Assembly: GCA_036845085.1 (NCBI GenBank)
Contig: DAIUEN010000011.1
Location: 1 to 17,716, forward strand
DNA: 17,716 nt
DNA from: Candidatus Nanopusillus sp.
GTDB taxonomy: Archaea; Nanobdellota; Nanobdellia; Nanobdellales; Nanobdellaceae
Direction of reading: 5' to 3'
In this document: positions 18 through 17,716 of the stretch, piece by piece
Layout: each line of letters opens with the position of its first letter
Position numbering within the stretch: position 1 is the first letter of the stretch
Translations under genes and position numbers: made by a program
Notes under the pieces: model-generated
Databases searched by the model: none
What the model saw: only the letters and a program-made list of their open reading frames with translations
What the model was told of the DNA's origin: nothing

Positions 18-19
18 CA

Positions 20-91: not shown

Positions 92-429
92 GTATCTAAT
101 TACATAATCTTTTTCATTATAATTTTTATAAATGAAATTTAAAAATTCTATTAAAAGTCATTATAAGATAAAATAAACTGAAATTAGAAAATTGATAAAA
201 AATTATATTCTTAACAATATACCCAACAAAACCAATACATCTAGTGCTACTACAGAACCCACTACAATTTTGGCATATTCATTATTCATTATATCCGAAT
301 TTATTATCGCATATACTTCTATAATCGTCGTTAATAAAATTATCATAATTGATAATAATTTTCCATCCATCTAACATGTATAAACTTACATATTTATAAA
401 GAATTAAGATATTTATAAAAACAACAATT

Positions 430-795: not shown

Positions 796-823
796 TTTTT
801 TATTTTTATGATTAATTTTTTAA

Positions 824-1072
824 TTATATACCTGTTCTGACCTTCTCCTTTAACAACCTTCTTAAGCATTCAATACATAAATATCCACCATATTTTCTAC
901 TTATTCTCTTTTGACTAAGATTTATTCTCCTCAATTTGGCTGGATGTAACCCTTTTAATCCTTGTAATTCTTTTTTACAAATAGCGCATTTTGGTATATT
1001 TGCTTTTTTATACTTTTTAATAACAGTTAATTTCCCTGACGGAGTTATTCTATATAAATATGTTAGGGCCAT
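824..1072 (-). CDS. rpl34e: 50S ribosomal protein L34e
   Basis: ATG start, 82 aa. It has RITPSGK near the N-terminus, CAICKKEL...CIEC zinc-ribbon cysteines and RKYGGYLC, which is the typical L34e pattern. It lies 9 nt downstream of the DUF106-like gene. Confidence 0.85.
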   Translation of the reverse strand: MALTYLYRITPSGKLTVIKKYKKANIPKCAICKKELQGLKGLHPAKLRRINLSQKRISRKYGGYLCIECLRRLLKEKVRTGI

Positions 1073-1081
1073 TCTTGATTT

Positions 1082-1687: not shown

Positions 1688-3036
1688 TTTTTTAAGTATT
1701 TACCTATAATTGGTACATATTCTAAGCCCCCATTTTTTTCAAGATCTTGGTATAACTGATTAGCAATTAGAACTAGAAGAAGTATAGAAATGCCACTAAT
1801 AACTGTTCCAACTATATCAGATATTGCTGCAAGAAAACCTACAAAGATACCTGATAAATATCCTACAGGTTTGATATATTTTTCTAAATCTTCTTTTATT
1901 ATTCTTGGATCCCTAGAATATAAACCAAGAGCTGGATTTTCTGTTAGTTGTTTAGCTAAATTATTTGGATCTAGTCCTAAAGCATATATCCAATATAAAG
2001 ACAATAACATTCCGCCAATTGTAAATATTAATAAATATACAAATATGTGAATTATATTTAATGGATCTAATATATATGATACTCCATATTGTCCTAAACT
2101 AAGCAATAATCTTGGAGGGTTCAGCATTCTTACTATAATATTTTGATTATCAAATCCGAATAAATGTTGTATTTGAACTATGATAGCGTAAATAAATATT
2201 ACTGGAATAACAGAAGTGTATAAAACATTTATAGGGAATTTCTGAGTTTCTCCACGAATATTTACATATAATAGAGGAATTTCTATTTTTAGTTTACTCA
2301 AATAAGCTGATAAATATATGATTATGAATGTAAAAAATATTGTGGATACAAAAACTAATCCCATTATAGTATTACCCTGCAAAAAGAAATCAATTGCTAG
2401 TAATAATTCTCCAGTATATTGTATTTGGTCGGCAATGATAGAAAATCCAAATAGTCTTATAAATAATGCAATGCTAATTGATGTAAATATCATAACATTA
2501 ATTCCGGATGTTATTCCATATTTTGATGAAAAATCATCAAGTAACAATATAATAATTCCCCCCACAAATAATTGCAAAAATATAATTACATGTAAGACAA
2601 CTGGATTTATATCTAAAGAGTAATTTGGTATAATTGTACCGCTTAATAATAAAACAAATGCTTCTAATATTATAAATACTATTGCAAAAAATCTATAGTA
2701 TAAATTATATTTTCTCTTTCCGTCTTCTGTAGTAAGATTTATACTTAATATACCCATTCCAATTAGCAATTGCAACAATATAGAAGAAAGTACTATTGGA
2801 CCTATACCCAAAGTAGTTAACGTTCCAAGATTAGATCCAAATAAAATTGCTAATTGTGCTAATCTTTGGGTTACAGAAAGATCCAAACCAAAAATGTAAA
2901 TAGAAGATAAAATTGCATATATTACTATTACTAATAATGTATTTAATACTCTTTCTTTTGTTGTTAAAGTAACTATTGAAGGTTTTATAGATGGAATATA
3001 CTTAGCTATTTTTTCTATCATAGAAGTATCAGACAT
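1684..3036 (-). CDS. secY: Preprotein translocase subunit SecY
   Basis: ATG start, 450 aa, about 10 hydrophobic segments, with an archaeal SecY-like N-terminus (IPSIKPS...LTTKERVLNTLLVIVIYAILSSIYIFG) and C-terminus. It is followed by the DUF106-like gene, L34e and L14e, as in archaeal ribosomal clusters. Confidence 0.9.
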   Translation of the reverse strand: MSDTSMIEKIAKYIPSIKPSIVTLTTKERVLNTLLVIVIYAILSSIYIFGLDLSVTQRLAQLAILFGSNLGTLTTLGIGPIVLSSILLQLLIGMGILSINLTTEDGKRKYNLYYRFFAIVFIILEAFVLLLSGTIIPNYSLDINPVVLHVIIFLQLFVGGIIILLLDDFSSKYGITSGINVMIFTSISIALFIRLFGFSIIADQIQYTGELLLAIDFFLQGNTIMGLVFVSTIFFTFIIIYLSAYLSKLKIEIPLLYVNIRGETQKFPINVLYTSVIPVIFIYAIIVQIQHLFGFDNQNIIVRMLNPPRLLLSLGQYGVSYILDPLNIIHIFVYLLIFTIGGMLLSLYWIYALGLDPNNLAKQLTENPALGLYSRDPRIIKEDLEKYIKPVGYLSGIFVGFLAAISDIVGTVISGISILLLVLIANQLYQDLEKNGGLEYVPIIGKYLKK

Positions 3037-3066
3037 TTATAACGTATTAGGAAAAATTTTTAAAAG

Positions 3067-5232
3067 CTAATCTATACTTCTTCCAGAGAATGTTTGTTTA
3101 GGTCCTTTATACTCGGGAAGATTAGAAAATAGGGAATATGTAAATACACTATAGGGGACAATAGGTTGTTGATTAATATTTTGATAGACAAATTGATATG
3201 GTCCCGATATAGTATAAAAGTTAGGATAACCTGTATTAACACCCAGAGATCCATAATATAAATTTCTTAAACTGTATGGGGAGAATAAATATTCGTATAA
3301 ACCTTCTAATTGACTTAAGCCAGTAGAATAGAAACCACCTGGTTCATGAACAACAATTGTCTCTTTATTTTCTAAAATATCTTTCAACTTATTTAGCTCT
3401 TCCATAACAACATCATCCCAACCCATACCCAATGGCAAATGAGTATCAGATCCCCATTGTGTCTCATGAACATGAATGTGTTTTAAGTATTTTTTATAAT
3501 TATTGAAATTATCTAGCCATTTTAGTATATCTTCTTTAGTATATCCAAATTTTTCATACATTTTTGCGTGTCCAACGTCCCAATTTATTCCTACATGTTT
3601 ATCTACAAATTCTTCTATACTACCATATTCTTTTTTTATCTTATTAATTATATTAAAAAATTCCTTTCTTTTTTCTAATTCTTCTAAAGCTTCTTTAATT
3701 CCTTTCTTTACTTCTTCCATATAGCCAATCAATAATTCAGGTCTAGAAGCTATAGTACCTGCATATGATTGCTCTATTATTATTGTTGGAAAAACTTTGT
3801 CTAAATTCTGTAATATTTGGGGCTCCCTCGATGCTATTCTATTTAGCATATCTATAATAGCATTTTTTACTATTTCTCTTGCATTTTCTCTAGCTAAAAC
3901 ATCTGCAGGATACAAAACAGGTATATTTAAATTTTTAGATTTTTCACCTATAGCTACAATATTTCTGGCTAAATTATCTATTAACCCGGGTCCTTCTTGT
4001 ATATTTTCTGTATTTATACCAAATAAATTTCCAATACTTTTTGATAAATCCTTTATTTTATTATTATCAATATTACCTTCTCTTATCTCTTTAATTTCTT
4101 TTTCTATCTTCTCTAACAGGTCTTTTATACTCTTATCTACACTACGATCAAACATTTTTCTTTCGTAATTATAAATTTCTTCAATTTTATTAGATATTTC
4201 TTTTTTTATCTTATCATCCAGAATATCGCTATTTTTATAATGTTCTAATTTTTCTTTATATTTATCTAAGTAATATTTTATAACATTTTTTAATTTTTCA
4301 TATTCTTCTAAAGAATTTTTTACTTTTTCTATGTATGAGCTGAGATAAAATAAGTGTTCTTTTAAATTTTCTATATTATTTTCTCGTAAGTCTTCTTGTA
4401 TTTGTAATAATATATTTGCAACTTCATGTTTTATATATCCTCTGTTGAATGGTCTTACTATTTCAGATGCTTCTTTAGTATATGCTTCTACAATATTATT
4501 CCAGATATTTTTATTTGTAAGATCTAATTCTTTAATTATATTACCATCTTTTGATACAATTCCTACATGAGAATATAAAACTTCTCCAACCCCTTCTTTC
4601 CTACCCATTGCTTTTTCTGGTTCTAATAATATAGATGCATAAGAATGAACAATCTTTGCAAATAACCAAGAAGGTAATTTATCAACAGAGTCTATATTTT
4701 TATATTCTTCTGCACTTATATATCCTTTTAACAACAATTCTTTTTTTATTTCTTCTAATTTTTTTGGATCTTCTCTTATGTGTTTTTTTACCATTTCTTC
4801 AAATCCTTTATCATATACAGCAGATTCCATATCTCCAGCATGCATATTTACATGCAAAGAATTTCCATAAATATTACCCATAATAGATGCTGTTTCTAAT
4901 ACAGCAGAAACCTTATATGCCATATCCCTCTTAACACTATCTGTAAATCTTTCACCAATAATACTACTCAATTGAAAATCATTTTCTGGTGCATGTAAAG
5001 ATAAATTCATTTCATTTATCCTTGCAAGCCTTGCAGCTTCTTCCCATATAAATTTAGGTATTCTTGCCCACCCTTTATCACCTTCAAAAGTAAATGTTTG
5101 TACCTCTACCCCCTTATAACCTAATAAAGATTTATTTTGTACCTCTAAATGTTGTAAAGGATTGGCAGGATTTGTACTTGTAGAAATTCCTTTATTAAGT
5201 AATTTCCTTGTTATGTCATCATTATTACTCAT
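3067..5232 (-). CDS. Xylose isomerase-like / endonuclease IV-like TIM-barrel protein interrupted by a ~350-aa helical insert, with a Tyr-rich C-terminal tail
   Basis: The long ORF is certainly coding. The track start at 5253 is TTG, and the first ATG is at 5232 (MSNNDD). Using the track's 728-aa numbering, the ordered motifs are SLHAPE (~85), HVNMHAGD (~134), IIIEQSYAG (~491), WDVGHA (~558), HIHVHET (~592), DTHLPLGMG (~603) and VVHEPGG (~634). They reproduce the strand-end metal-ligand pattern of the AP-endonuclease-2/xylose-isomerase TIM-barrel superfamily from memory. Residues ~141-488 are K/E/I/N-rich helical repeats. The family call is by motif recall, not by alignment. Confidence 0.5.
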   Translation of the reverse strand: MSNNDDITRKLLNKGISTSTNPANPLQHLEVQNKSLLGYKGVEVQTFTFEGDKGWARIPKFIWEEAARLARINEMNLSLHAPENDFQLSSIIGERFTDSVKRDMAYKVSAVLETASIMGNIYGNSLHVNMHAGDMESAVYDKGFEEMVKKHIREDPKKLEEIKKELLLKGYISAEEYKNIDSVDKLPSWLFAKIVHSYASILLEPEKAMGRKEGVGEVLYSHVGIVSKDGNIIKELDLTNKNIWNNIVEAYTKEASEIVRPFNRGYIKHEVANILLQIQEDLRENNIENLKEHLFYLSSYIEKVKNSLEEYEKLKNVIKYYLDKYKEKLEHYKNSDILDDKIKKEISNKIEEIYNYERKMFDRSVDKSIKDLLEKIEKEIKEIREGNIDNNKIKDLSKSIGNLFGINTENIQEGPGLIDNLARNIVAIGEKSKNLNIPVLYPADVLARENAREIVKNAIIDMLNRIASREPQILQNLDKVFPTIIIEQSYAGTIASRPELLIGYMEEVKKGIKEALEELEKRKEFFNIINKIKKEYGSIEEFVDKHVGINWDVGHAKMYEKFGYTKEDILKWLDNFNNYKKYLKHIHVHETQWGSDTHLPLGMGWDDVVMEELNKLKDILENKETIVVHEPGGFYSTGLSQLEGLYEYLFSPYSLRNLYYGSLGVNTGYPNFYTISGPYQFVYQNINQQPIVPYSVFTYSLFSNLPEYKGPKQTFSGRSID

Positions 5233-5255
5233 AAATAGATTTATATCTTTCAAAA

Positions 5256-6896
5256 TTAATAAGATAGTAGTCCAAAGGTTTTTTTCATAGAATTATATAT
5301 GGTCCATATTTTTCTAGCAGAAGACATCAAAAAATCAGACTTCTCTTTTTCCGATTGTCTTTCTATTTCTTTTCTTTGTAAATTCTTAGATATTAATTCT
5401 AAGTTATATCCAAAAGTTGTTATAAAAGACATTATTAATTCTAATGGATTTGGAAATACGGATACCTTCTTACTTTCTTCTTTCTTTTCTTCTTCTCTTT
5501 TTTTCATTTCCTCATTTTTTTCAGAAGGAAAATATTTTTCTATCCAATATAAAGATCCTAAAGCTTCAGATATCCTATTATCTTTCATTAATTCTTGTAA
5601 TAATTCTTTAGTCCATTTTATATCATATATTGTATTTATTTCATCTGGCTTTTTATTGCTCTTAGAAGCTACTAACTCAAGTAATTTTTTATCATTTTTT
5701 ATTATATCAAAAATATATACGTCTAATAAGAGCTCTTTTATGTTAGATATATATTCATCCGTCAAACCTGTTGCTAATGTAAAATCTTTCGATAATTTAT
5801 CTAACTTCAAAGAATTATATTCGGACTTTTCCAAAATGTATCCATATATATTAATTTCTAACCTTCCCGAGAATAAGTAATATTTACCATAGTCTTGGGA
5901 CTGAGGAATTGCTCTTCCTTTAATATTGATTTCATATACTGGTATATATGTCTTTTCTATAGGGTCATTTTTAGTTTTGTCCCATTCTTTTATTTTTTTT
6001 TCAGCATCTGTTAATATTAAAGATAAATCTATAACAGTTACATTAAATATATTGACAATATCTGGGGTTTCTTCTCCAGTAATAATAGATTTTTTTGCTA
6101 TTTTAAAATAAGGTTTTATTATTTCAGTATAGTATACTAAAGAATTCAATTCATGTTTTAGATATCCTTTCAATATGTTTATTCTATGTATAACTTCATT
6201 ATAGTGGTATTCCAACCAAGAATAAAAATTAGATAACCTAGAAGATATAACTCCTCTTACTACCTCGTTTAACACATTTTTAGTTTCTTCCGAATCTATT
6301 TGCAAACTTTTATCATTCTTTATATAATTATATAGAGCTTCTCCAATTATTCCCTTGTTTTTCAATTTTTCTATCTCAGACAAAATTTCATATCTAAAAA
6401 ATCCAGCATATGCTGATGGAAAAGTTCTAGAAATATTCCTTAAAGGAGCTGAAGGGTTTATGGTTGGATCTACATAGTCTATCCATCTCTGCTTTAAATA
6501 TTTATAAGCAGCATATGCTTTTTTTTCATCATTTGACTTTAAATCTAAATAACTCTTATATACGGTATATAATAATTGATATTCATTGATAATTGAGATA
6601 ATACTTTTAGTTAATACATTTATTAATTCTCCGATATTACGAAGATTTGATATTAAATTAGCAAAAGTTCTATATGATAAATCTCCAAAAAGTCCAGATG
6701 CAAAAGAGGCATTGTATGTATCTGATATTTTGGATATCTTTAGTTTTAAACTATCTCTTGCAAAATCTATAAGCCAATAATATAGCTTATCAAAAGATAT
6801 ACCTTGGTGATCTAATAAAAAATAAATTTCTAAAATTTTGTGTTTCTTATCTTCAACACTTTCTTTTCTTAGCTCTTCTAAAGTAATCTCTGCCAT
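5256..6896 (-). CDS. Hypothetical 546-aa mostly alpha-helical protein, partner of the TIM-barrel gene
   Basis: The ORF is open to 7112, but I place the start at the ATG at 6896 (MAEITLEELRKE). The upstream 72 codons are low-complexity and would overlap the divergent plus-strand gene. I see no TM segment or signal peptide, and I recognise no family. It has a charged EEMKKREEEKKEESKK linker and an amphipathic C-terminus (KIWTIYNSMKKTFGLLSY). Its stop lies 2 nt (TTG start) or 23 nt (ATG start) before the next gene. Confidence 0.75.
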   Translation of the reverse strand: MAEITLEELRKESVEDKKHKILEIYFLLDHQGISFDKLYYWLIDFARDSLKLKISKISDTYNASFASGLFGDLSYRTFANLISNLRNIGELINVLTKSIISIINEYQLLYTVYKSYLDLKSNDEKKAYAAYKYLKQRWIDYVDPTINPSAPLRNISRTFPSAYAGFFRYEILSEIEKLKNKGIIGEALYNYIKNDKSLQIDSEETKNVLNEVVRGVISSRLSNFYSWLEYHYNEVIHRINILKGYLKHELNSLVYYTEIIKPYFKIAKKSIITGEETPDIVNIFNVTVIDLSLILTDAEKKIKEWDKTKNDPIEKTYIPVYEINIKGRAIPQSQDYGKYYLFSGRLEINIYGYILEKSEYNSLKLDKLSKDFTLATGLTDEYISNIKELLLDVYIFDIIKNDKKLLELVASKSNKKPDEINTIYDIKWTKELLQELMKDNRISEALGSLYWIEKYFPSEKNEEMKKREEEKKEESKKVSVFPNPLELIMSFITTFGYNLELISKNLQRKEIERQSEKEKSDFLMSSARKIWTIYNSMKKTFGLLSY

Positions 6897-6954
6897 AACT
6901 ATATATATAAAAATATTTCCAAAGTTATAAATTTTGAAGTTTCTTACATATTTT

Positions 6955-7494
6955 ATGAAACTGAACTTAATAATAATACCATCAAAAAAATTTTCTGAAG
7001 ATGATCTATATAACTTTATGGATATTTTAGATGGTAAAACATATGTAGCTAATATTAAAAGGAATGTATCTATAGGAAAATATAAATCTTTAGTATTCCC
7101 AGATTTTGACATAAATGAAATATTTATGATGCGAGATCACTATTTTGATAGACTAATATTTTTAGCAGATGAAGGATTCAAAGAATTTATAAATATAAAG
7201 ATTGCTGCAATATTTACAAGATATTTAAATTTATATAAAACAGTAATACTTTCCACATTAGCTCCTATAGCTTTTATTAAGATGAATCTATTACATGGAA
7301 AAAAAATAGTATTTAATTATGAAGAATTTCCAGAATATTTAAAAATAGTAGAAAAATATAGAGCAGAATTTTTATCTGGATATAGTTATTTTGTTGATAA
7401 AAACTTAATAACTGTAAAAGGAAGGGAAACTATATATGAATTAGGGGAAGATCTATTAGAAATAGAAAAAGAATTAAAAAAACTTATGCTATAA
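6955..7494 (+). CDS. Hypothetical protein (179 aa from the first ATG)
   Basis: The track start at 6934 is TTG, and the first ATG is at 6955 (MKLNLIII). The composition is protein-like, and an ORF this long is unlikely by chance in ~75% A+T DNA, where stop codons are frequent. I recognise no family. Its 3' end overlaps the RNR 3' end by 11 nt. Confidence 0.6.
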   Translation: MKLNLIIIPSKKFSEDDLYNFMDILDGKTYVANIKRNVSIGKYKSLVFPDFDINEIFMMRDHYFDRLIFLADEGFKEFINIKIAAIFTRYLNLYKTVILSTLAPIAFIKMNLLHGKKIVFNYEEFPEYLKIVEKYRAEFLSGYSYFVDKNLITVKGRETIYELGEDLLEIEKELKKLML

Positions 7495-10222
7495 TACATT
7501 CAGACCATCCACAATCCATACAAGTTATACATCCACCTTCATGTTTTAATTTATTGCTTCCACATATAGGACATAAAGTTTTGAGATTATCATTTTTATT
7601 TATACTATAACTTGACTGTAGATTAAGCTTAACTTTTCCTACTTGACTTTCTTCTATTTTTTCTTCATATATTAGTTCTTTATATATAGCAGAAAGTTCT
7701 ATTCCTAATGACTTTAATATTTCTAAAGTTTTATTATTTATTTTTCCACTTAAAACCATTTTTAAATACTCCTTTGCTCTGTTCTTACTAGCTTCAGCAG
7801 GAGCATAATATACTTGAGCAGATTTAGAACCTTCCCTATAAATAGTAATTCCTTTACATCCAGATTTGTATGCAAATATATATGCCTTATAGACATCCTC
7901 TGGCTGTACCCATGATGGCATATTTATTGTTTTTGATATAGAAGTCGTTATCCACAATTGTGCTACTGCTTGTGCTCTTACATGATCCCACCATGGGATA
8001 TCCAAAGCTGTTAGGAATACTTTTTTCATATCTTCAGGTATTTCATCCAATCCCATCAAGCTACCACCATTATTTGAAATTTTCTTCAAAAGTTCTTCAT
8101 TATATAAACCTCTTTCTCTCAATTGTCTTTCAAATTCTATGTCTACATAATAATAAGTACCAGCAGTTACTCTTTTTTCATATACAAGAGAATATTGTGG
8201 CTCTATTCCGGATGATACATCGACTAACATAGATATTGAACCTGTTGGAGCAATAGATGTTACTTCTACATTTCTTATACCGTATTTCTTTATTTCTTCA
8301 ACAAGGTAATCCCAATCTAAAGTCCATAAATCTCTATGGTAATATCCTTCTAAAGGAATCTCTCCTTCTGGGTATGATGTTTCATAATATTTTTCAAAAA
8401 CTCCTCTTTCTTTTGCTCTATTAACTGATTCTAGCATAGAATAATAAGTTAAATATTCTGTAACTTTCATAATAAACTTAAATCCTTCTTCAGATGAATA
8501 TGGAATCTTTAATGCGTACATAGCATCTGCAAGACCCATGTATCCTAATCCTATTCTCCTAACAGATTTAGATGCTTTTTCAATTTCTTTTACAGGATAT
8601 TTATTAACATCTATTACATTATCTAAGAATCTGTATGCCCATATTATTGTTTCTTTATATTCTTCCCAGTCAAAATAAACATCACCATTCTTAAACTTTA
8701 TCATAGAGTATAAGTTTATTGATCCTAAATTACATGATTCGTATGGATATAAAGGCTGCTCTCCACATGGATTTGTTGCCTTTATTGGTCCCCTATATTT
8801 GTACATGACATTTCTTCTATTTATATTATCCATAAATAAACATCCTGGATCTGCAGATTTCCAAGCAACAAATGCTATATCATTTAATATGCTTTTTGGG
8901 TCTACATAATTTACTATTGCTTCTTTTGGCACTTTATTGATATCATAATTTAAATCTCCAGGAAATGGAGCATTATATTTACTTAATATTCTTGGATTTA
9001 TTAATGGATATGGTTTATTATCATTATAATACTCCCAAAAGTCAGGGGTAAACATAACAGATATATTAAAATTCGTCAATGTTCCTTCTTGTTCTTTAGC
9101 ATGAATAAATTTCAATATATCTGGATGCCATATTTCTAATATACCCATATTAGCTCCTCTTCTTTTGCCACCCTGTTTTATTACATCTGTTAATGTATCT
9201 ATTATTTTCATAAATGAAACAGGACCGGAAGCTACACCACCAGTAGAAGCAACGACGTCACCTTCTGGTCTTAATTTAGAATAGTTTATACCAACTCCCC
9301 CGCCAGACTTAAATATAAGTGCTGCTTCTTTGGCAGATTCCATTATACTTTCCATATCATCTTTTATATCGATGACAAAACATGCAGATAATTGACCTAA
9401 TCTAGCTCCAGCATTGAATAATGTTGGAGAATTTGGCATGAATTTTTTCTGAGCCATTAAATTAAAGTACTTCAAATAATTTTCGTAATATTTGTCAAAC
9501 TCTCCTTTTTTTATCATATCTAAAAGCTGAGTCCATGTCACCTTCATATGACCCTTTCTGTTTAATTCATCATATAAATATTTCATCCTTTCTAGATGAT
9601 ATCTATTCCATTTAACTTTATATTCCCCATTCTCATATTTTAACCCTATTTTATACTCTAATTCTTCAGGATTAAATTCTTCTTCTGGTTTCACAAACTG
9701 TTTCCCATCTTTATCATATACTCTTGGATCATAAAGTATATCAGGTATAACAACTAATGCTGCAACTCTTTCAAACATTTGTTTAGGTCCTTCTATTAAA
9801 TTTTTATTTTCATCTCTTAGTAAATATCTGTTTACCATCAACTTTATAGCATTCAATGAAAACTTCTTTGCTATATCTTCTTCGTAAAAAGGTCCTAATA
9901 ATTCCATTTTTTCTTTTCTTATTCTTTCTTTTTCTTTTCTATATGTTATATAAGCTTTTGCTACTTCATATAAGTCAAATTTGACTAAAGAATATTCTAT
10001 TATATCTTGAATCTGCTCTACATGTGGTATATTTTCTTCTCCAAACTTTTCATTCAAAATATTAACAATAAACTTTAATATTTCGCTAAGCTTATTAGGA
10101 TCGTATTGTCCTACAGCCTTCATAGCCCTTTCAATCGCGTAAAAGATCCTATATAAATCAAAATCGACAACCCTCCCGTCTCTTTTTATAACTTTTTTAA
10201 CTTTTATAGAAAGGTCCATCAT
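7484..10222 (-). CDS. nrdJ: Class II (adenosylcobalamin-dependent) ribonucleotide reductase with N-terminal ATP-cone and C-terminal Cys4 zinc finger
   Basis: ATG start. The ATP-cone is [24 protein letters not shown]. The class II active-site block is [22 protein letters not shown]. Other matching segments are SPTLFNAG and [15 protein letters not shown]. The C-terminus is CPICGS..(9)..[12 protein letters not shown]. At 912 aa there is no intein-sized insertion. Confidence 0.9.
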
Positions 10223-10290
10223 TTTAAATAAATTCTAAAAAGTTTAATAAAATTTACTATCGAAATCTATCTGTATTTAAAAATTTTAAA

Positions 10291-10890
10291 CTATATCTCA
10301 ACAATTATTACATTTCTTGCTGCATTAATAATTTTTGCTTTATTAATTCTGTCTTCTAGTCCTCCCGCCTCATGAATATGCCCATGAACATTTAAAATAA
10401 CATTATCTGAATATTTAATGAATTTATACAATTCTTTGCTACCAGAAATACTTAAAGAAGTTTTAGCTCCTAATGGAGGTATATGTGTAAATAAAATTAT
10501 TTTTTTATCTTTTGATATATACTTTAATTTATCTAGAAAATCCTTTATTTCCCATTCATCTATAAAAAAAATCGGTACATCACCTCCACCAAAACCTGCT
10601 ATAACTATTTCTCCAATAGTAAAATATTTTTTATGTAATTCTCTTATACCATATTTCTTCTTTAACTCATAAATCATTTCTAGTGTTTCATGATTACCAG
10701 GAATTATAATTATTTTGTTTGGATTGATCTTACTTGTTAATCTTCCTATTAATCCTTTTTTTAATTCTCCCATATCTGAAATATCTCCAAGAAGTATAAC
10801 ATAATCTGGATTTTCCTTTTCATATAAACTAATTATTTTATAAATAATTTCTATATCGTTATGTATATCCGATGCAACTAATAATTTCAT
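10291..10890 (-). CDS. Calcineurin-like metallophosphoesterase (MJ0936/YfcE-type)
   Basis: All five motifs appear in order: SDIHND (DxH), LGDISD (GDxxD), PGNHE (GNHE), FTHIPP (H) and VHGHIHE (GHxH). The protein is 199 aa. Confidence 0.8.
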   Translation of the reverse strand: MKLLVASDIHNDIEIIYKIISLYEKENPDYVILLGDISDMGELKKGLIGRLTSKINPNKIIIIPGNHETLEMIYELKKKYGIRELHKKYFTIGEIVIAGFGGGDVPIFFIDEWEIKDFLDKLKYISKDKKIILFTHIPPLGAKTSLSISGSKELYKFIKYSDNVILNVHGHIHEAGGLEDRINKAKIINAARNVIIVEI

Positions 10891-10900
10891 AAAATTATTT

Positions 10901-11851
10901 TTATGAATATAATTTTTTAGACTTTACATATTCTATTAAAAAATTTTTTAAAATCTCTGGATCACAAAAATAATTAAATTTATATTCATCTAATATTTTC
11001 TTCATTTTATCTTTATCTTTTTCTGAGAATATATCAGATTTTGAGAAATATAATATAATGTTTTTTTCATTAAAATACTTAAGTATTCTATTTAAAAGAT
11101 TTTTTTGTTCTTCTATACTATATCCACAACTTTCTGTAACATCAAATACATATATGATTATATCTGATAAATACTTAATAGCCAAAATTGCTTTTTTTTC
11201 AATGTTATTTAATTCTTCTATATCCCTATCTAAAATTCCAGGAGTATCTATTACTTGTATTTTAAAATAAATATCCTCTATGTATCCAATCATTAAATCC
11301 TTCGTTGTAAATGGATATGGTTCTATTTTTACATTCGATCCAGTCAATCTTTTTAACAGCGTACTTTTTCCAACATTTGGTAATCCAGCAATTATTACTG
11401 TTGGATAGTTTTTTATATCTGGCATTCTTTTTTTAACTTTCTTATATTCTAAATATATATTAAATATCCAGTTATTTCTTCTAAGTATACTAGCCATTCT
11501 TCCGTAAAATTCTTTTCTATATTTTTCTATAATTTTTATATCATTTGTTAATCTAATGTTATTTCTATATTTTTTGTAAATATCAGTCATTAAACGTTTA
11601 ATATAATTTATCCTTTCTTTTACCTTTTTAAATGACTTAAATCCAAGAAATATATTATATAATTCTTTGTAAAATTCGTTTCTTGGTTCTTCTAGTTCAG
11701 AAATAATTCTATCTAATCTTGATATGAAGATTTCATAAATAGTATCTATTTTTACTAGATTTTTTTCTTTGAGATCTTTTATATATTTAGAATTCTCTCT
11801 AGCTCTTTTAAAAGCACTTTCTATTAAATCTTCAACATACTTAATTTTCAT
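10901..11851 (-). CDS. Nog1-family GTPase (archaeal NOG1-like ribosome-biogenesis GTP-binding protein)
   Basis: An N-terminal helical NOG1-type domain is followed by G1 GLPNVGKSTLL, G2-region PFTTKD, G3 DTPGILDR and a G4 variant SKSD. The protein is 316 aa. Confidence 0.75.
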   Translation of the reverse strand: MKIKYVEDLIESAFKRARENSKYIKDLKEKNLVKIDTIYEIFISRLDRIISELEEPRNEFYKELYNIFLGFKSFKKVKERINYIKRLMTDIYKKYRNNIRLTNDIKIIEKYRKEFYGRMASILRRNNWIFNIYLEYKKVKKRMPDIKNYPTVIIAGLPNVGKSTLLKRLTGSNVKIEPYPFTTKDLMIGYIEDIYFKIQVIDTPGILDRDIEELNNIEKKAILAIKYLSDIIIYVFDVTESCGYSIEEQKNLLNRILKYFNEKNIILYFSKSDIFSEKDKDKMKKILDEYKFNYFCDPEILKNFLIEYVKSKKLYS

Positions 11852-11883
11852 AAAAAGTATTTACTAAAAAAGTTAAAAATAAA

Positions 11884-12321
11884 TTATTCAACACTAATTC
11901 TCTTGCCAGCTTCTGATTTTATTTTATTTATTTCTATTCTTAATACTCCATCCTCATATTTTGCTTTTATATTATTTAAATCAGAATCTGGTGGTAATTC
12001 TATATATCTCTCATAAACACTAAATCCTTTTTCTACTCTAACATAATTCTCAGATTTTTCTTTATATTCTGATTTCCTTTTAGCTCTTAGTTTTAGAGTA
12101 TGATCTAGTACTGTTAATTCTATATCCTTCTTATCTACACCAGGCAAATCTACTTCTATAACATATTTGTCACCTTCATCTCTAATATCCATTAAAGGTT
12201 GTTCTACAATTTCTAAGTCGGAAAATCTTCTGTTCATCTCTTTCATTAATTTCTTCATTAATCTTAACTGCTTTCTAAATTGTCTGTCAAATTCATCAAA
12301 AAAGTCATCAATCCATGCCAT
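11884..12321 (-). CDS. hsp20: Small heat-shock protein, Hsp20/alpha-crystallin family
   Basis: The alpha-crystallin domain is PLMDIRDEGDKYVIEVDLPGVDKKDIELTVLDHTLKLRAKRK...GFSVYERYIELPPDSDLNNIKAKYEDGVLRIEINK. The protein is 145 aa. Confidence 0.85.
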   Translation of the reverse strand: MAWIDDFFDEFDRQFRKQLRLMKKLMKEMNRRFSDLEIVEQPLMDIRDEGDKYVIEVDLPGVDKKDIELTVLDHTLKLRAKRKSEYKEKSENYVRVEKGFSVYERYIELPPDSDLNNIKAKYEDGVLRIEINKIKSEAGKRISVE

Positions 12322-12371
12322 ATATTATATTTTATTAAAAACACTTAAGAATTTTAGACAGTATAAAATAT

Positions 12372-12980
12372 ATGAAACTTTACAGTTTGGAGGATGGAAG
12401 AACATTTGTAAGATCTGCCAGAACGATTATTAAAAACTATTTAATAAAGAAAGATATATTTTATCCAGAAGAATTATTAAAATATGAAGAAAAAGTTGGA
12501 GTTTTTACAACATTAAAGAAATATTCTAATAACTCATTAAGAGGGTGTATAGGATTTCCAAAACCCATATATCCTCTATACAAAGCTTTAGCCCTTTCAG
12601 CCATTCATGCTGCAGTTGATGATCCAAGATTTGAACCATTAAGTTTAGAAGAATTAGACAACATAATAATAGAAATAAACATATTAACAGAACCTAGATT
12701 AATAGTTGTAAATAATCCAGAAGAATATTTGGAAAAAATAAAGATTGGAGAAGATGGTTTATTATTGGAATATAAGATATATTCTGGGTTACTTTTACCA
12801 GAAGTTGCTGTGGAAGAAGAATGGGATGTAAAAACTTTTTTAGATTATTTATGTATAAAAGCTGGGCTATACAAAGACTGTTGGAAAACTTTGCCGGTAA
12901 AAATATATAAATTTCAGTCACAAATATTTGCAGAAAAAGAACCAAATGGAGAGATAATTGAAATAAAACTAAAAAAATAA
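12372..12980 (+). CDS. AMMECR1 domain protein (AmmeMemoRadiSam system protein A type)
   Basis: The signature LRGCIGFP is followed by AVDDPRFEPL and LLLPEVA. The protein is 202 aa with an ATG start. Confidence 0.85.
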   Translation: MKLYSLEDGRTFVRSARTIIKNYLIKKDIFYPEELLKYEEKVGVFTTLKKYSNNSLRGCIGFPKPIYPLYKALALSAIHAAVDDPRFEPLSLEELDNIIIEINILTEPRLIVVNNPEEYLEKIKIGEDGLLLEYKIYSGLLLPEVAVEEEWDVKTFLDYLCIKAGLYKDCWKTLPVKIYKFQSQIFAEKEPNGEIIEIKLKK

Positions 12981-12983
12981 TTC

Positions 12984-13856
12984 TTATATATAGGATATAA
13001 TAGATCCATATCCTACTACTATATCATCATTTAGGGTTTTTTCTCCAGAATTATAATATCTTAATAACTCTACTCTACCTTTTTTGTATTTAGTATATTC
13101 TATAAAAAATATAAATGGATATATTCCACATACTGTACCATTATATTTTTTTATCAAATCCCTTAAACCTTCAGAATCTAATTTTACTATCTTATCTATA
13201 TATTCTAAATCCATTTCCTTTACATTGTCTATTATATTTTCTTTAAAATATGTATAATCATATATTTCTCCATGATGTGTAAAGTCACCAGAAGATAAGA
13301 TAAATATTTCCCTATTTAATTCTTTAGAAACATTATCTATTACTCTTACAAAATCTCTAATTTTTTCTAAATTTAAATCTTTTATCAATATAGGAACTAT
13401 TTTAAATTTGTCATCGAATAAGTATTTTAAAAAAGGTAATTGAACTTCTATAGAATGCTCATATTTAAATGCTATTGGATCTTCAACAGCATCAAAACTA
13501 TCTAGTATCTTTTTTATAAATTCTTTATCTGACTCCACATACCCTAAAGGTGTATACCAATCATCTAATAATAAGGAAATATTGCTTCCTATTCCATAGT
13601 GATTTGTCCCAACGATTATTATAGTATCAAAGTTATAATTTTCATATAATTCTTTATAAGTAAACGCTGCACATGGTCCAGAAAATTCATAACCAGCATG
13701 AGGAACGATTCCAGCTAATAATTTTTTATTCATTTTAATTTCTGAAGGAATATATCCAGGTCCAAACTTTTTATCTAAAAAACATCTCTCAATTTGTTTT
13801 ATTAATTCTTCTCTATCGAAAGAATAAAATCCTTTAGCAATTGGATACTTTACCAT
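12984..13856 (-). CDS. MEMO1-family protein (AmmeMemoRadiSam system protein B type)
   Basis: AGIVPHAGYEFSGPCAA, VGTNH, HSIEVQLPFLKY and SGDFTHHG match the MEMO/extradiol-dioxygenase-class-III-like motifs. The protein is 290 aa. Its stop lies 3 nt from the convergent AMMECR1 stop. Confidence 0.85.
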   Translation of the reverse strand: MVKYPIAKGFYSFDREELIKQIERCFLDKKFGPGYIPSEIKMNKKLLAGIVPHAGYEFSGPCAAFTYKELYENYNFDTIIIVGTNHYGIGSNISLLLDDWYTPLGYVESDKEFIKKILDSFDAVEDPIAFKYEHSIEVQLPFLKYLFDDKFKIVPILIKDLNLEKIRDFVRVIDNVSKELNREIFILSSGDFTHHGEIYDYTYFKENIIDNVKEMDLEYIDKIVKLDSEGLRDLIKKYNGTVCGIYPFIFFIEYTKYKKGRVELLRYYNSGEKTLNDDIVVGYGSIISYI

Positions 13857-13944
13857 GTATATATTATTTATGGATTTCTTTTTGTTTTTAACTTATCAAT
13901 AGATCTTATGATACTTCTTTGTAAAACTATTTTTAATAATCAAT

Positions 13945-13963
13945 AAGATCTTTAGGATCCTAA
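13945..13963. promoter_or_regulatory. Abutting GATC-centred palindromes AAGATCTT and TTAGGATCCTAA (candidate protein-binding site)
   Basis: There are perfect 8-bp (13945..13952) and 12-bp (13952..13963) palindromes in the 149-nt gap between the DUF2341 gene's stop and the MEMO gene's start. A related ATCAATAGATCTTA copy sits at 13895..13908. G/C-containing palindromes stand out in this AT-rich spacer. Function is not demonstrated. Confidence 0.3.
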
Positions 13964-14005
13964 CTTTAATGCAAGCTCTGTAATATACTTAAAAGATTAT
14001 AAAGA

Positions 14006-15781
14006 CTATGTTAATATTTCTTCATATCCAATAATAACAGAAGGTTCGGGATATGTATATTTTCTAACAATGATATTATCTATCCACCCAGATGCTTCAG
14101 AAGGAAATATAACAACTCTACCAGCAGAAGTTATTGAATAATCTGTTCTAGATGCTGCTAAAACCATATTTCTCCAATATTCTAACCTATTATCCGATAT
14201 TCTAAACTCTAAAGTATATCGTGTATTTGTTGCAGCAGCAAAGTTTGTTTCTGCTAAAACTGTATCTCCACCATTTACTCTTTTACCTAATTCAGATTCA
14301 CGTCTATCATTTGATAGAGCAATGTAATAGTTGTTAGATATATCTATAAATCTTAAGTGTGCAGAAATACCTGAATTACCATCACTAAATGATGTAAATA
14401 AAACATTAAATCTTAAAGCAACATTCGTCATATTTGGTAGAAGTGTTGTTTTGGGAGAAATATATGAATAATAGCCGGCCGGACAACTAAAAGTTAATCT
14501 CCCATTTGTTGCATCATGTGTAAATGTACATCCACCCATATTACTATACGGTATAGGATGCCATCCAGGGTTGTGTACAATATCATAGTTAGATAAAGTA
14601 TTTGTTGAGAAATCATCATACCAATCAAATACATTATGTGGATTGCTTTCACTAGTAGCATTAGGATTGCCATAATACATGTACACAGTAGCATTACCGT
14701 TAGCTGAAATATACGGTACTTTTATCCATATTATTGTATTAGAAGTATTGCATCCACTTTCTATCCAGTATGGTATTTTATATTCTTTATAGTCTGAGGT
14801 ATTTAAATAAGTGAATCTAACATCACCACAATCTGGTTTCATTTTTCCTTGAGATATTGGGGTTTCTGTATCTACAGTTATATTAATTTGATAATCTATA
14901 AGTGTATTTGTATTTAGTGTATTGTTTACAATTATTTTTCTTAGGTATACTCCCATTACAGATGCAAGAGTTATATTAATAGATTCAGAAGATGATCCAA
15001 AAGTAGATTCAAATGTAGCAGTATAATTTCCTACAGAAGCATTACTATTAGTTATTACAAATGTAACTGAACAAGAATCAGAGTCGGAAACATTACAAGT
15101 CTTATATGGAGAATCGCATAAAAATCCCTCTGGTAAATAACATAAGACCATGACGGTTCCCGAAGTATTACAAGATAAGAAAGTAGTAATGGTAACGGAT
15201 TGGGATTGTCCTTGAACTAAATATATCAATGATTTATCCGAAATAATTGAATAGACATAAGCTGAAGTTGGATTACATCCAGATGGCGGATTATAATATC
15301 TGTCGGAATCGTTTTCTGATGAAGTATATGGTATGTCCTTAATATTAATTTTTGTTAAATATACAAGAGTACGTAAATTATTAGATGTTTCATATACATA
15401 AATACTAATCTGGTTAAAATAGTTACCAAACTGAAAATAACTATAATTGGCCTCTACTTTTAGAAGAGAATTATTTGGATATAGTATATAACCGTAAGGA
15501 TTTATTGGCGTTATTTTTGCATCTTGTTTATTAATTAAAACATTTATATACCTATAATCTATTGGCTCTAAAGGTTTTAGATATAGAATTATCTTAGATT
15601 CGTCATAAGTATAAGATAATAATTCAAATTTAGGATAAAAAGAGTCAGAAATAACATTTGATATAGAATTACCAGTTTGAATAGATCGAAAAATGTCTGA
15701 AGAATATAGATAAGTAAGTAAAGATAAAAAACCTACAGAGAGCACAAAAAATATCATCTCTGGAACATGAGAAGCTTTCAT
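14006..15781 (-). CDS. Prepilin-like (class III signal or signal-anchor) surface protein with Cys-rich Ig-like region, DUF2341 domain and LamG/concanavalin-like lectin domain
   Basis: The N-terminus is MKA-SHVPE-MIFFVLSVGFLSLLTYLY. Residues ~280-385 (RKIIVNNT...DYQINITVD...CGDVRFTY...IPYWIESG...IIWIKVPYISANGNATVYMYYGNPNATS...VFDWYDDF) match the DUF2341 consensus as I recall it. Residues ~385-585, ending GWIDNIIVRKY, look like LamG. I count about 15 N-x-S/T sequons and 10 Cys, six of them within residues ~168-240. Confidence 0.7.
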   Translation of the reverse strand: MKASHVPEMIFFVLSVGFLSLLTYLYSSDIFRSIQTGNSISNVISDSFYPKFELLSYTYDESKIILYLKPLEPIDYRYINVLINKQDAKITPINPYGYILYPNNSLLKVEANYSYFQFGNYFNQISIYVYETSNNLRTLVYLTKINIKDIPYTSSENDSDRYYNPPSGCNPTSAYVYSIISDKSLIYLVQGQSQSVTITTFLSCNTSGTVMVLCYLPEGFLCDSPYKTCNVSDSDSCSVTFVITNSNASVGNYTATFESTFGSSSESINITLASVMGVYLRKIIVNNTLNTNTLIDYQINITVDTETPISQGKMKPDCGDVRFTYLNTSDYKEYKIPYWIESGCNTSNTIIWIKVPYISANGNATVYMYYGNPNATSESNPHNVFDWYDDFSTNTLSNYDIVHNPGWHPIPYSNMGGCTFTHDATNGRLTFSCPAGYYSYISPKTTLLPNMTNVALRFNVLFTSFSDGNSGISAHLRFIDISNNYYIALSNDRRESELGKRVNGGDTVLAETNFAAATNTRYTLEFRISDNRLEYWRNMVLAASRTDYSITSAGRVVIFPSEASGWIDNIIVRKYTYPEPSVIIGYEEILT

Positions 15782-15823
15782 ATTAGTATACTATATATCT
15801 GATAACTTATAAAGTATCACTTA

Positions 15824-16270
15824 TCAACTTATGTATATTAGCGTTAAAAACTTAGTTCCACTACAAGAGATTAATTGTACAAAATTCCAAGAATCTTTTC
15901 TTATACTACTATTTTCAAAATATATTATAGCTTCTTCTCCTGGTAATAATAAATCTACAGGATACAATTTGCTTATGTTATAATAAAAGTTTGTTAAAAT
16001 TCCATTAACATATAACTTATAGCAATTTAAATCTTCTGGTTTGTTTCCTTTATTTTGTATTATTATATAGGGATTTTCATAATTCGACAAATTATTTTTG
16101 AATATTATTAATTCTCTGGACTTTTCGTAGTATCTCTCAGAAATAGACAATCCTATAGTATATAGGTTGTTATAACTGCTTTCGATGATATATTTTATTG
16201 TAAAAATACCGAACAAAAATATAGAGAAAACGACAATTGAAGAAAAAATTGAGGATAGATCAGCTTTCAT
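15824..16270 (-). CDS. Small pilin-like / FlaF-FlaG-like protein (148 aa from second ATG)
   Basis: I prefer the ATG at 16270 (MKADLSSIFSSIVVFSIFLFGIFTI) because it forms an ATGA overlap with the upstream stop (16267..16270). The alternative ATG is at 16282. A single N-terminal hydrophobic helix is followed by a beta-rich domain with the IIIQNKGNKPEDL..YKLYVNG pattern typical of archaeal pilin/FlaF/FlaG folds. It has 3 sequons. Confidence 0.55.
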   Translation of the reverse strand: MKADLSSIFSSIVVFSIFLFGIFTIKYIIESSYNNLYTIGLSISERYYEKSRELIIFKNNLSNYENPYIIIQNKGNKPEDLNCYKLYVNGILTNFYYNISKLYPVDLLLPGEEAIIYFENSSIRKDSWNFVQLISCSGTKFLTLIYIS

Positions 16271-16743
16271 TGTACTAAGCATATACTAGAACTTACATTT
16301 ACAAATATCAATTTTTGATCATCTACTCCATATTCACTGACAACCTTTATATAATAATAACCATTAGAATTCCAACTAGTATTTATTGATATTATACAAT
16401 TTGGTGCCCATATATTAATTTCATTAGGACATTGAACTAAATTTATAGTGATATTTTCTTTTAGATATCCATTAACAAATAATACAGTATTTGACTGATT
16501 TAATAGAGTATTACCATAATTTTTAACATACAAAATCAAATTTCTAGATGAATTATCATATGCACAAGAATCTATCTGTATTATAGTGTTTAACTTATTT
16601 GATATTAGCTCTTGCCTAGATATTGCCGCATTGTTGATATTATTCAAACTATTATAAGATGATGACACAAACAAATATGTTAAAATAGCTGCGGAAATAA
16701 ACAATATTATATTAACTATTATCGTAGCAAACTGTCCTCTCAT
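16267..16743 (-). CDS. Small pilin-like / FlaF-FlaG-like protein (158 aa)
   Basis: The N-terminus is MRG-QFATIIVNIILFISAAILTYLFV: a basic residue, Gly, then a ~22-residue hydrophobic helix, which is class III signal-like. It is followed by LILYVKNYGNTLLNQSNTVLFVNGYL. It has 5 sequons and 4 Cys. Confidence 0.55.
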   Translation of the reverse strand: MRGQFATIIVNIILFISAAILTYLFVSSSYNSLNNINNAAISRQELISNKLNTIIQIDSCAYDNSSRNLILYVKNYGNTLLNQSNTVLFVNGYLKENITINLVQCPNEINIWAPNCIISINTSWNSNGYYYIKVVSEYGVDDQKLIFVNVSSSICLVQ

Positions 16744-16775
16744 ATTTTAATATAGATTACTCGAAAATATATAAG

Positions 16776-17591
16776 TTATTCTTCTAGTTCATATCCCTCG
16801 ATGCCTTTGTCTATTACAATTTTTCTCCATTCTAAAAGCTTTTTTTGTCTCATTATTTCATATTCTACAACTTTATCAATTATTTTTAGATTTTGGACTC
16901 CTTTTATTTCTACTTTTTCGCCTTCCGGTATAGAAATGTTTATATCTTGTCTAATTGTTCCCAAACCTCTTTTTACTTTACCAGTTAATCTTAATACTAG
17001 TCCTATATATTCTGCTACTTCTTTAACCTCTTTCAGACTAGTTAAATCTGGTCCAGTAGCTATTTCTATTAGTGGTATTCCCAATCTATCTAATCTATAT
17101 TTAACATAATTTTCTCCTTCCTCAATTTTTCTAGCAGCATCTTCCTCTATACATAAAGTTTGTATTCTTATCTCTTTACCTTTATAATTTATTTTTCCAT
17201 CCAAAGCTAATAACAAAGTCCTTTGAAAACCAGATGTATTTGAACCGTCTACCACTATTTTCCTCATTATCTGAAGAATTTCTGGTATATACATATTAAA
17301 ATACTCTGCTAATAAAATTCCGAATTTTAGCGCTTCTTCATTAATTAAATGCGGCGGTTCTTCATCTAGTTCTACCAAACAAGAATAATCATTTGAATAC
17401 TGATAAAAAAATATCTTATCTTTTTGTGTTTCATATTCTGCAGCTACATCTTTTTTACCAATTTCACTTTGTACTACTCTCAATTTTCTCATAATTTCAT
17501 AATCGTAATGATCTTCTAAGTCGGTTTTACAAGAACAAAATAATTTTTCTTTAGTATTTATTTGTTGATGTATTTCTAAACCAGCTCTCAT
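16776..17591 (-). CDS. gatE: Glu-tRNA(Gln) amidotransferase subunit E, N-terminal (cradle/catalytic) fragment only; split gene
   Basis: MRAGLEIHQQINTKEKLFCSCKT, VVDGSNTSGFQRT, LCIEEDAARK, GIPLIEIATGPD and GTIRQDINISI..G.KVEIKGVQNL are GatE-specific blocks. The ORF stops after 271 aa, whereas GatE is normally about 600+ aa. Downstream are 32 nt and then an unrelated pilin-like gene. Confidence 0.8.
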   Translation of the reverse strand: MRAGLEIHQQINTKEKLFCSCKTDLEDHYDYEIMRKLRVVQSEIGKKDVAAEYETQKDKIFFYQYSNDYSCLVELDEEPPHLINEEALKFGILLAEYFNMYIPEILQIMRKIVVDGSNTSGFQRTLLLALDGKINYKGKEIRIQTLCIEEDAARKIEEGENYVKYRLDRLGIPLIEIATGPDLTSLKEVKEVAEYIGLVLRLTGKVKRGLGTIRQDINISIPEGEKVEIKGVQNLKIIDKVVEYEIMRQKKLLEWRKIVIDKGIEGYELEE

Positions 17592-17625
17592 TATAAAAAT
17601 ATTTTAGTTAAGAAATAAAAATTAT
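17592..17625. promoter_or_regulatory. 34-nt divergent spacer with interleaved TATA-like elements for gatE-N and tRNA-Ala(CGC)
   Basis: TTATAAAAATATTTTA (from 17591) lies at about -35..-20 of tRNA nt 1. On the other strand ATAATTTTTATTT (17625..17613) lies at -34..-22 of the gatE ATG. Calling TATA boxes in AT-rich DNA is weak evidence. Confidence 0.3.
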
Positions 17626-17697
17626 GGGCCCGTAGTCTAGTGGTAGGACGTCGGCCTCGCTAGCCGAAGGTCCCGGGTTCGAATCCCGGCGGGTCCA
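17626..17697 (+). tRNA. tRNA-Ala: tRNA-Ala, anticodon CGC (U at position 37)
   Basis: The sequence is GGGCCCG-TA-GTCT-AGTGGTA-GGAC-G-TCGGC-CTCGCTA-GCCGA-AGGTC-CCGGG-TTCGAAT-CCCGG-CGGGTCC-A. The body is identical to the other copy, including G3:U70. The anticodon is CGC (17658..17660). Nucleotide 37 (17661) is T instead of a purine. There is no intron and no encoded CCA. Confidence 0.85.
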
Positions 17698-17699
17698 TG

Positions 17700-17715
17700 A
17701 GTTTTAGATAAAACT
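17700..17715 (+). terminator. tRNA 3' trailer palindrome with T4 run (copy 2)
   Basis: This is the same TGAGTTTTAGATAAAACTT trailer found after the first tRNA-Ala. Its role in termination or processing is inferred. Confidence 0.3.
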
Positions 17716-17716
17716 T

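Follow-up and report, generated by a model that had tools for sequence, protein, structure and literature searches.

How does a nanoarchaeal ectosymbiont recognise its particular host and hold on to it? The locus described here poses this problem in concrete form: do three adjacent genes of a Candidatus Nanopusillus species encode a lectin borne by a pilus, or do they belong to the archaellum? The genes, named g1, g2 and g3 in the order of their transcription, lie on the minus strand of contig DAIUEN010000011.1 (GenBank assembly GCA_036845085.1), whose positions 1 to 17,716 are the whole stretch of DNA that was analysed and are called the window in the following. An initial annotation, made from the sequence alone, had taken them for a prepilin-like surface cluster separate from the archaellum and ending in a lectin-type protein. 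We arrive at a different assignment. At a probability of roughly 60%, g1 and g2 would be the ArlG/ArlF stator pair of the archaellum, and g3 would stand beside this pair or be joined to it via an ArlF/G-type base, projecting a glycan-binding head.

The three genes are packed exactly as first described. An ATGA overlap (ATG 16270-16268, TGA 16269-16267) joins g1 (16743..16267, minus strand, 158 aa) to g2 (16270..15824, minus strand, 148 aa from MKAD, or 152 aa from an alternative ATG at 16282), and a gap of exactly 42 nt (15823-15782) separates g2 from g3 (15781..14006, minus strand, 591 aa). They are probably co-transcribed. Each product carries a single hydrophobic stretch, located at the N-terminus (maximum Kyte-Doolittle 19-mer 1.9-2.6 at residues 7-9), in agreement with the N-terminal helix annotated for all three. 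The reported density of N-glycosylation sequons stands as far as the counts are concerned (5, 3 and 15 in g1, g2 and g3), and 2-3 sequons per 100 aa exceed the 0-1 per 100 aa of the cytoplasmic neighbours. However, the density does not significantly exceed that of shuffled versions of the same proteins (p 0.07-0.36), and it therefore reflects richness in N, S and T.

The assignment begins with g1, which matches the NCBIfam model of ArlF with 62.8 bits (E 4e-17, positions 7-137 of 137) and that of ArlG with 42.2 bits (positions 6-138 of 148). Along with four orthologs, it gives end-to-end ArlF/ArlG matches of 48-64 bits. The orthologs reach up to 64 bits on ArlG and 46 bits on the Pfam model PF01917 (Arch_flagellin), above its gathering threshold of 29.5. 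No family model was matched by g2 in the library search; its family is aligned with the g1 family by hhalign over the full length (97.2%, E 4e-11, 140 columns), its L017 ortholog matches ArlF with 22.7 bits, and the ortholog in Nanoclepta bears the UniProt name 'Archaeal flagellar protein F' (related contigs and single proteins are cited by L and P numbers throughout). Two Cys are conserved in g2. The N-terminal domain of g3 is paired with the g1 family at 86.8% (E 4e-6, 109 columns) and with g2 at 62%. The beta-domain motifs that had been picked out by eye in all three proteins are the very columns paired in these alignments. The three proteins are supported as paralogous, membrane-anchored proteins of extracellular type within the archaellin/pilin superfamily, and g1 and g2 most likely represent the archaellum pair ArlG/ArlF (FlaG/FlaF) and not prepilins, as judged from their profile relationships.

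Family profiles of g1 and g2 returned nothing meaningful among PDB sequences, and the solved structures of FlaF and FlaG are thus not reached directly by sequence. A word-indexed homolog search with g1 recovered g1 itself only, and with the combined g1 and g2 profile 11 close relatives only. Among 1.84 billion representative proteins searched with HMMER, the g2 family comprises only 7 representative clusters, in which every named member is from the Nanopusillaceae. The N-termini differ between the three families: six of the seven distinct g2 orthologs have an Asp right behind the basic start, the lineage of L009 and L010 (MKTNS) being without it; g3 orthologs retain a Glu 5-8 residues from the start (MRGFEE, MKGQYE, MRGWGE, MKRSFNE and MKASHVPE; L005, L011, L013, L016, L017 and window 15758-15781); and g1 orthologs show neither of these early acidic residues.

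The most serious alternative is a type IV adhesion pilus, in which g1 and g2 would be cleaved pilins and g3 a pilin-anchored tip or minor-pilin adhesin, with assembly in trans by a non-archaellar ATPase and TadC. A control is provided by a DPANN type IV pilus operon that was found through a g3 homolog (L018 1521-10623 / L019; small-genome archaeon, 38% G+C). It encodes six small MKG/MKA-type proteins, an ATPase, two half TadC genes, a 398-aa MKG protein and a DUF2341 protein with the pilin-like start MMHGQTRVEF. The pilins of this operon score best on UpsA (37-45 bits) and TIGR02537 and reach just 19-25 bits on ArlF, whereas the ArlF/ArlG scores of g1 are two to three times those of the control pilins, and none of g1, g2 and g3 matches TIGR02537, UpsA or UpsB at E values up to 1. 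The orthologs of g1 are likewise without a pilin-model match. The core motif of FlaFind 1.2, [KRDE][GA][ALIFQMVED][ILMVTAS] before a hydrophobic helix (PMC4307647), occurs in one of the three window proteins (g2, KADL). Among orthologs it is present in 2/4 for g1, 2/7 for g2 and 0/7 for g3, compared with 5/7 of the control operon pilins. Since a real cleavage site should be conserved, this counts against the pilin reading; FlaF of S. acidocaldarius is itself FlaFind-negative (PMC4425475).

The gene neighbourhood bears on the same question. For the nanoarchaeote Nst1, a full complement of archaellum proteins was reported by Podar et al. (PMC3655853), and their supplementary table lists FlaF, FlaG and GatE consecutively and possibly, ahead of them, an 'uncharacterized protein'. 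The order GatE_N-g1-g2-g3 in the window mirrors this FlaF-FlaG-GatE neighbourhood. Its marker is the upstream neighbour of g1, a 271-aa gene for the N-terminal domain of GatE (16776..17591, minus strand; PF02934, E 7e-54), which precedes g1 also in L001-L004 and L016. From the match with Nst1, g1, which adjoins gatE, would thus correspond to the FlaG side and g2 to the FlaF side, the latter in accordance with its UniProt name. With the synteny added to the ArlF/ArlG matches and the unconserved motif, the view of a prepilin cluster separate from the archaellum is not supported.

As correctly noted at first, no ATPase or platform gene lies within the 17.7-kb window, nor are arlB, arlH, arlI or arlJ found near the module in the window or the compared loci, several of which are limited by contig ends or scan flanks. 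This had been taken to mean that the cluster is not a standard archaellum operon. The gene identifiers of FlaI, the archaellins and FlaJ are far apart in Nst1, and according to a review an arl cluster of the traditional kind is lacking in these genomes (PMC10117864). With arl genes scattered in this way, the lack of FlaH/I/J next to the module carries no information. The relatives Nanoclepta, Nanobdella and YN1 make archaella (PMC10117864, among other sources). In the set annotated for YN1, FlaBDEHIJF, FlaF is present and FlaG is not; possibly, one of the two has diverged too far to be recognised by routine annotation.

The three genes are conserved as a module in at least six Nanopusillaceae lineages. 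The flanking genes differ, and we therefore conclude that the module is kept as a unit. The order g1-g2-g3 occurs in Candidatus Nanoclepta minutus / NZ13-N (153, 146 and 463 aa) and in the metagenomic relatives L011 and L017. L016 shows GatE_N-g1-g2-g3, as in the window. In L013, a Nanopusillaceae metagenome-assembled genome (MAG), the third protein of the module has at least 699 aa and carries Laminin_G_3 in addition to DUF2341. L009 and L010, a pair of near-identical Nanopusillaceae MAGs, are missing the third gene and have the DUF2341 head fused directly to g2, giving a protein of 461 aa in L010. Our module scans of genomes and metagenomes used narrow peptide patterns and returned 3 and 2 loci, a yield that carries no inference on N. 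equitans, N. acidilobi or Nanobdella.

The third protein falls into three parts. Its base (residues 1-150; 15332..15781, minus strand) comprises a transmembrane helix (residues 3-27) and a third ArlF/G-like beta domain. The corresponding domain of the L013 ortholog matches PF01917 by itself with E 6e-5. In the full-length AlphaFold2 model, which was computed with 55 homologs, the base consists of the helix 3-27 and seven strands between residues 52 and 146, with a predicted local distance difference test (pLDDT) score of 84-90 over residues 50-110. The spacer that follows (residues ~160-270; 14972..15304, minus strand) contains seven sequons and six Cys at 169-237; four further Cys follow downstream of this cluster. 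The six Cys had been noticed before, while the Ig-like label then attached to them finds no backing: the spacer has no match to any hidden Markov model (HMM), and residues 149-271 are modelled with low confidence (pLDDT 31-60) and short strands only. It is specific to this lineage, being missing from the orthologs in Nanoclepta, P0002, L016 and L017.

The head (residues 275-591) is modelled as two sandwiches with a pLDDT above 90. Sandwich 1 (residues 279-400; 14582..14947, minus strand; pLDDT 95-98) contains the DUF2341 domain annotated before, and PF10102 matches it at residues 317-397 with E 4e-24 and 85.2 bits against a cut-off of 23.4. Sandwich 2 (residues ~400-591; 14009..14581, minus strand) is a jelly roll of the concanavalin A-like or LamG-like type. 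Searched against the PDB with Foldseek, the head matches the carbohydrate-binding module CBM66 (4b1l; E 4e-8, target template-modelling score 0.75), and further matches are L-type lectins (Emp46/47), BoNT Hc-N, galectin-like folds and LamG folds. The annotated concanavalin/LamG-like domain holds at the level of the fold, but not at that of Pfam profiles, since no LamG model (Laminin_G_3 and others) matches g3 of the window even at E up to 5. The L013 ortholog does have a Laminin_G_3 match (E 1e-30), though it falls in an additional domain.

The head is strongly conserved, with nearly invariant columns, and portable. Modules 56-64% identical to it sit on other anchors, whereas the Nanoclepta ortholog is only 35% identical. 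In P0002 the anchor is an ArlF/G-like base and in P0003 a Sec signal peptide, while P0004 (L020 70-2691) is a repeat protein of tail-fibre-like type that ends in a Peptidase_S74 chaperone and whose module is 56% identical to the g3 head over 312 aa. The structural search in BFVD returned DUF2341, LamG-like and structural proteins of viruses, including proteins of Sulfolobales rod-shaped, ellipsoid and polyhedral viruses. In IMG/VR, 73 contigs encode DUF2341 modules according to an alignment-based scan, while a single-sequence scan of viral contigs found none. Proteins on the IMG/VR contigs L022-L025 are 32-36% identical to the g3 head across the whole module. On a tailed-virus contig, a DUF2341 gene follows the genes for the major head, tape-measure and Dit proteins, which is the position of a tail tip. 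Module-bearing loci of virus type also include L021 7980-10091, L023 and L029. Because of the concanavalin A-like fold, the portability, the relatives in virus tails and pili and an earlier adhesin prediction, the head most likely binds cell surfaces, probably their glycans. Along this line, the proposed role of the third protein as a surface adhesin remains plausible, while its anchoring through a prepilin is not supported.

Variation between close populations is concentrated in g3 and in the fused head. The ENA contig L001 is 99.97% identical to the window, and in it codon 155 of g3 (window 15317..15319, L001 2559-2561) is changed from TCA (Ser) to TAA. The stop splits g3 into 154 and 381 aa directly behind the base domain; the assemblies L003 and L004 read through this codon. 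A second single-nucleotide polymorphism (SNP) lies 13 nt from it; of the four differences in 13.7 kb, g3 thus holds two. Between L009 and L010, which are 99.1% identical, 33 of 57 SNPs are located in the g2::head gene (L009 10456-11841, L010 3260-4645; odds ratio 5.4, p 8e-10), 31 of these 33 in the head. The L009 fusion is interrupted at codons 149, 153 and 260 (TAG, TAG, TGA); recoding was rejected as the cause, given the mixed stop types and the intact long open reading frames nearby. In both L001 and L009, the first stop comes no more than a few codons away from where the base domain ends and leaves an ArlF/G-type protein intact, a pattern recognised post hoc and from two cases. The variation is consistent with an optional head that changes fast on a base that is conserved, and the polymorphism of the head agrees with the excess of non-synonymous SNPs reported for nanoarchaeal surface proteins (PMC6142677).

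The following mechanism would unite these results. In model organisms, ArlG reaches across the pseudoperiplasm, and ArlF sits on it as a cap and binds the surface layer (S-layer) (PMC8667602). As monotopic membrane proteins with archaellin-fold domains outside the membrane, g1 and g2 would likewise tie the archaellum motor to the S-layer. A third paralog specific to this lineage, g3 would be placed beside or within the ArlG/ArlF assembly by its base and would carry on it the spacer, rich in Cys and sequons in the present lineage, and the DUF2341 and concanavalin-like head. The latter would most likely bind surface glycans, either of the host or of the cell's own S-layer. We somewhat favour the host surface because the head is variable, dispensable and akin to receptor-binding modules of viruses. 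As we picture it, the head would be interchangeable and optional: swapped between anchors, variable between near-identical populations and removed by stops at the domain junction, with the base kept.

Several points weigh against this assignment. Every ArlF/ArlG score stays below the NCBIfam equivalog cut-off of 110 bits, the orthologs reaching 64 bits at most, and on PF01917 g1 of the window obtains 29.3 bits, 0.2 bits short of the threshold. The assignment to the F or G side is ambiguous, as g1 of the window scores higher on ArlF than on ArlG, the L013 ortholog shows the reverse, and synteny makes g1 the FlaG. The Nst1 table was available as a machine-converted supplement with columns offset by one row, and it is synteny and not sequence that was compared. 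A second, canonical ArlF/ArlG pair elsewhere in the genome is possible, Nst1 having one further 'FlaG paralog'. The N-terminal domain of g3 gave a poor model when folded alone (pLDDT 45) and was not taken to the fold search; the fold of the base is therefore taken from sequence profiles and from the model of the whole protein. DUF2341 proteins elsewhere go with type IV pili, not archaella. Finally, about 5 kb downstream of the module, Nanoclepta and L010 encode a FlaI-like ATPase below threshold, a half-size TadC and an MRG-type 171-aa protein.

This downstream set (L005 16180-19289 in Nanoclepta/NZ13-N; L010 9456-9971, with the TadC/ArlJ-like gene at half size) has the look of a type IV filament system of its own, of minimal size, in which the 171-aa protein with its MRG start and hydrophobic stretch may serve as the pilin. 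We rejected the Nanoclepta ATPase as a FlaI, as it scores 371 bits against a cut-off of 550, similar to the ATPase of the control pilus operon (416 bits), and is accompanied by the half-size TadC.

A pilus assembled in trans can draw on the proximity of this ATPase/TadC pair, 5 kb from the module in Nanoclepta, although as evidence for a link it is weak. Several such pairs are carried by Nanoarchaeota (PMC6142677, among other sources), and Makarova et al. (PMC4858521), who predicted DUF2341 proteins to be pilus adhesins, did not find cognate pilins for a nanoarchaeal ATPase clade. The N-termini of g1 to g3 (M, K/R, a small residue, then hydrophobic) are shaped like those of the L018 operon pilins, with g2 and some orthologs fitting the FlaFind motif. 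Pilin-type N-termini are joined to DUF2341 in P0057 and P0072; another such fusion, P0020, is located on a 1.7-kb contig and its genomic context is uninformative. Loci of the Desulfurococcus subclade 4A encode two genes of the 'Pilin, FlaG/FlaF/PilA family' followed by a DUF2341 surface protein, and a transformation screen hit a DUF2341 gene in the epd pilus locus of M. maripaludis. That no function is known for DUF2341 pilin fusions, as stated at first, is in part superseded, with pilus adhesins predicted in 2016 and one such gene in a Methanococcus pilus locus.

Besides the lack of matches to pilin models and the unconserved cleavage motif, this explanation is opposed by the lack of a recognised prepilin peptidase (A24) in N. 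equitans and Nst1, the two nanoarchaeal genomes then available to Makarova et al., by the absence of an ATPase near the module in the window, and by the description of the ArlF/G pair as exclusive to archaella (PMC8667602). Moreover, the g2 family is undetected outside the Nanopusillaceae, yet N. equitans, which is non-archaellated, has the clades of pilus ATPases as well. On balance, we regard the pilus as possible but considerably less probable than the stator pair with its lectin-headed neighbour.

Going beyond the stator reading, the archaellum of Nanopusillaceae might double as an organelle of host recognition. A third ArlF/G subunit would then reside in the stator or in the filament, where it could account for the 'thorn-like' decorations of Nanobdella, with a swappable lectin head from the pool that also supplies the receptor-binding modules of virus tail fibres, and a stop-mediated switch at the domain junction between headed and headless forms that tunes host range or evades viruses. 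We offer this as a speculative and rather improbable extension.

A target on the cell itself is likewise improbable. In this case g3, or the g2::head fusion, would grip the cell's own glycosylated S-layer and strengthen an ArlF-type attachment for archaellar rotation. In its favour are the binding of the S-layer protein by ArlF and the extension of the ArlG/ArlF complex through the pseudoperiplasm (PMC4425475, PMC8667602), the direct fusion of the L010 head to the FlaF-side gene, and the fact that the module is always encoded with g1 and g2. An essential self-anchor is, however, a poor fit to a head that is hypervariable between 99%-identical populations and truncated in two of them with intact bases. 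Its architecture also varies widely across lineages, and its close relatives in virus tail-tip and tail-fibre-like proteins bind foreign cells. That g3 is dispensable or degrading, in a cluster without joint function, is very improbable, even though L001 and L009 contain in-frame stops: the window and two other assemblies have an intact g3, the module occurs in at least six lineages with a strongly conserved head (pLDDT > 90), and the stops cluster at the domain junction and are not scattered.

Compared with known systems, g1 and g2 resemble ArlF/ArlG of S. acidocaldarius and P. furiosus (arCOG01824/arCOG01822) in a length of about 150 aa, a transmembrane helix followed by an archaellin-fold domain, full-length HMM matches, two adjacent paralogous genes, an unconserved class III cleavage motif and the synteny of FlaF/FlaG in Nst1. 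They differ in scores below the cut-off, in not being encoded with arlB/H/I/J, in the third, lectin-headed paralog that follows them and in the fusion of the head to the FlaF-side gene in one lineage. The DUF2341 proteins of pilus loci (arCOG03508; Methanococcus epd, Desulfurococcus subclade 4A) share with g3 the DUF2341 domain, with or without LamG, behind two FlaG/FlaF/PilA-family genes, and the predicted adhesin role. Yet these loci contain or lie with a pilus ATPase/TadC and FlaFind-positive pilins, and their DUF2341 proteins are larger (~870 aa), whereas the partners of g3 are ArlF/G-like and its head is mounted on an ArlF/G-like base. Virus tail-fibre and tail-tip modules have in common with g3 the DUF2341 and concanavalin A-like module and its position as a distal binding unit; the g3 head, in contrast, would be held on the cell membrane by an archaellin-type base instead of on a virion, and no virion genes are nearby. 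CBM66, Emp46/47 and LamG domains share the jelly-roll fold (Foldseek E 4e-8 to 1e-5) at just 10-20% identity, a likeness seen at the level of the fold, and Pfam LamG is not matched.

Nanoarchaeal FlaF/FlaG and the view of DUF2341 proteins as putative pilus adhesins are already in the literature. Our literature search did not find a description of the conserved ArlG-ArlF-(ArlF/G-like::DUF2341-lectin) module or of the variant with a fused head, nor of a head shared with tail-fibre-type proteins or of nonsense alleles at the domain junction. The locus also corrects an annotation trap, in which proteins look prepilin-like and behave stator-like in profile searches, and in which absent arl neighbours are uninformative. 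In relatives, cryo-tomography revealed archaella with unexplained thorn-like decorations, a second appendage and an attachment organelle, the proteins of the last not being identified in our literature search. The module provides a concrete, clonable candidate for surface or host recognition by nanoarchaea, a candidate unit of ArlG/ArlF-type anchors and a variable, putatively glycan-binding head with natural headed and headless alleles.

The window as a whole is AT-rich (~26% G+C), with nearly every gene on the minus strand. Besides the module, it encodes the GatE N-domain, Memo, AMMECR1, Hsp20, Nog1, a class II ribonucleotide reductase, SecY and ribosomal proteins. The GatE gene contains the GatB_N domain alone and ends in a clean stop, and its C-terminal part is not in the window; the 271-aa form may represent a split gene, in keeping with Nanoarchaeota. 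Memo (AmmeMemoRadiSam protein B) and AMMECR1 are adjacent and convergent at 12372-13856, with no radical-SAM partner in the window, and one indel near the 3' end of AMMECR1 separates the window from L001 (202 vs 206 aa). Upstream of SecY, two large conserved proteins of unassigned function are encoded at 5256-7112 and 3067-5253 (minus strand; 618 and 728 aa), the second with a weak xylose-isomerase-like TIM-barrel region. Both are syntenic in related loci (tblastn for L005, L011 and L016; gene sizes for L006 and L008) and only 30-39% identical to their counterparts there. Two inverted tRNA-Ala genes with the anticodons TGC and CGC bracket the window (20-91, minus strand; 17625-17698, plus strand), and as they are ~98% identical, the window ends form near-perfect inverted repeats.

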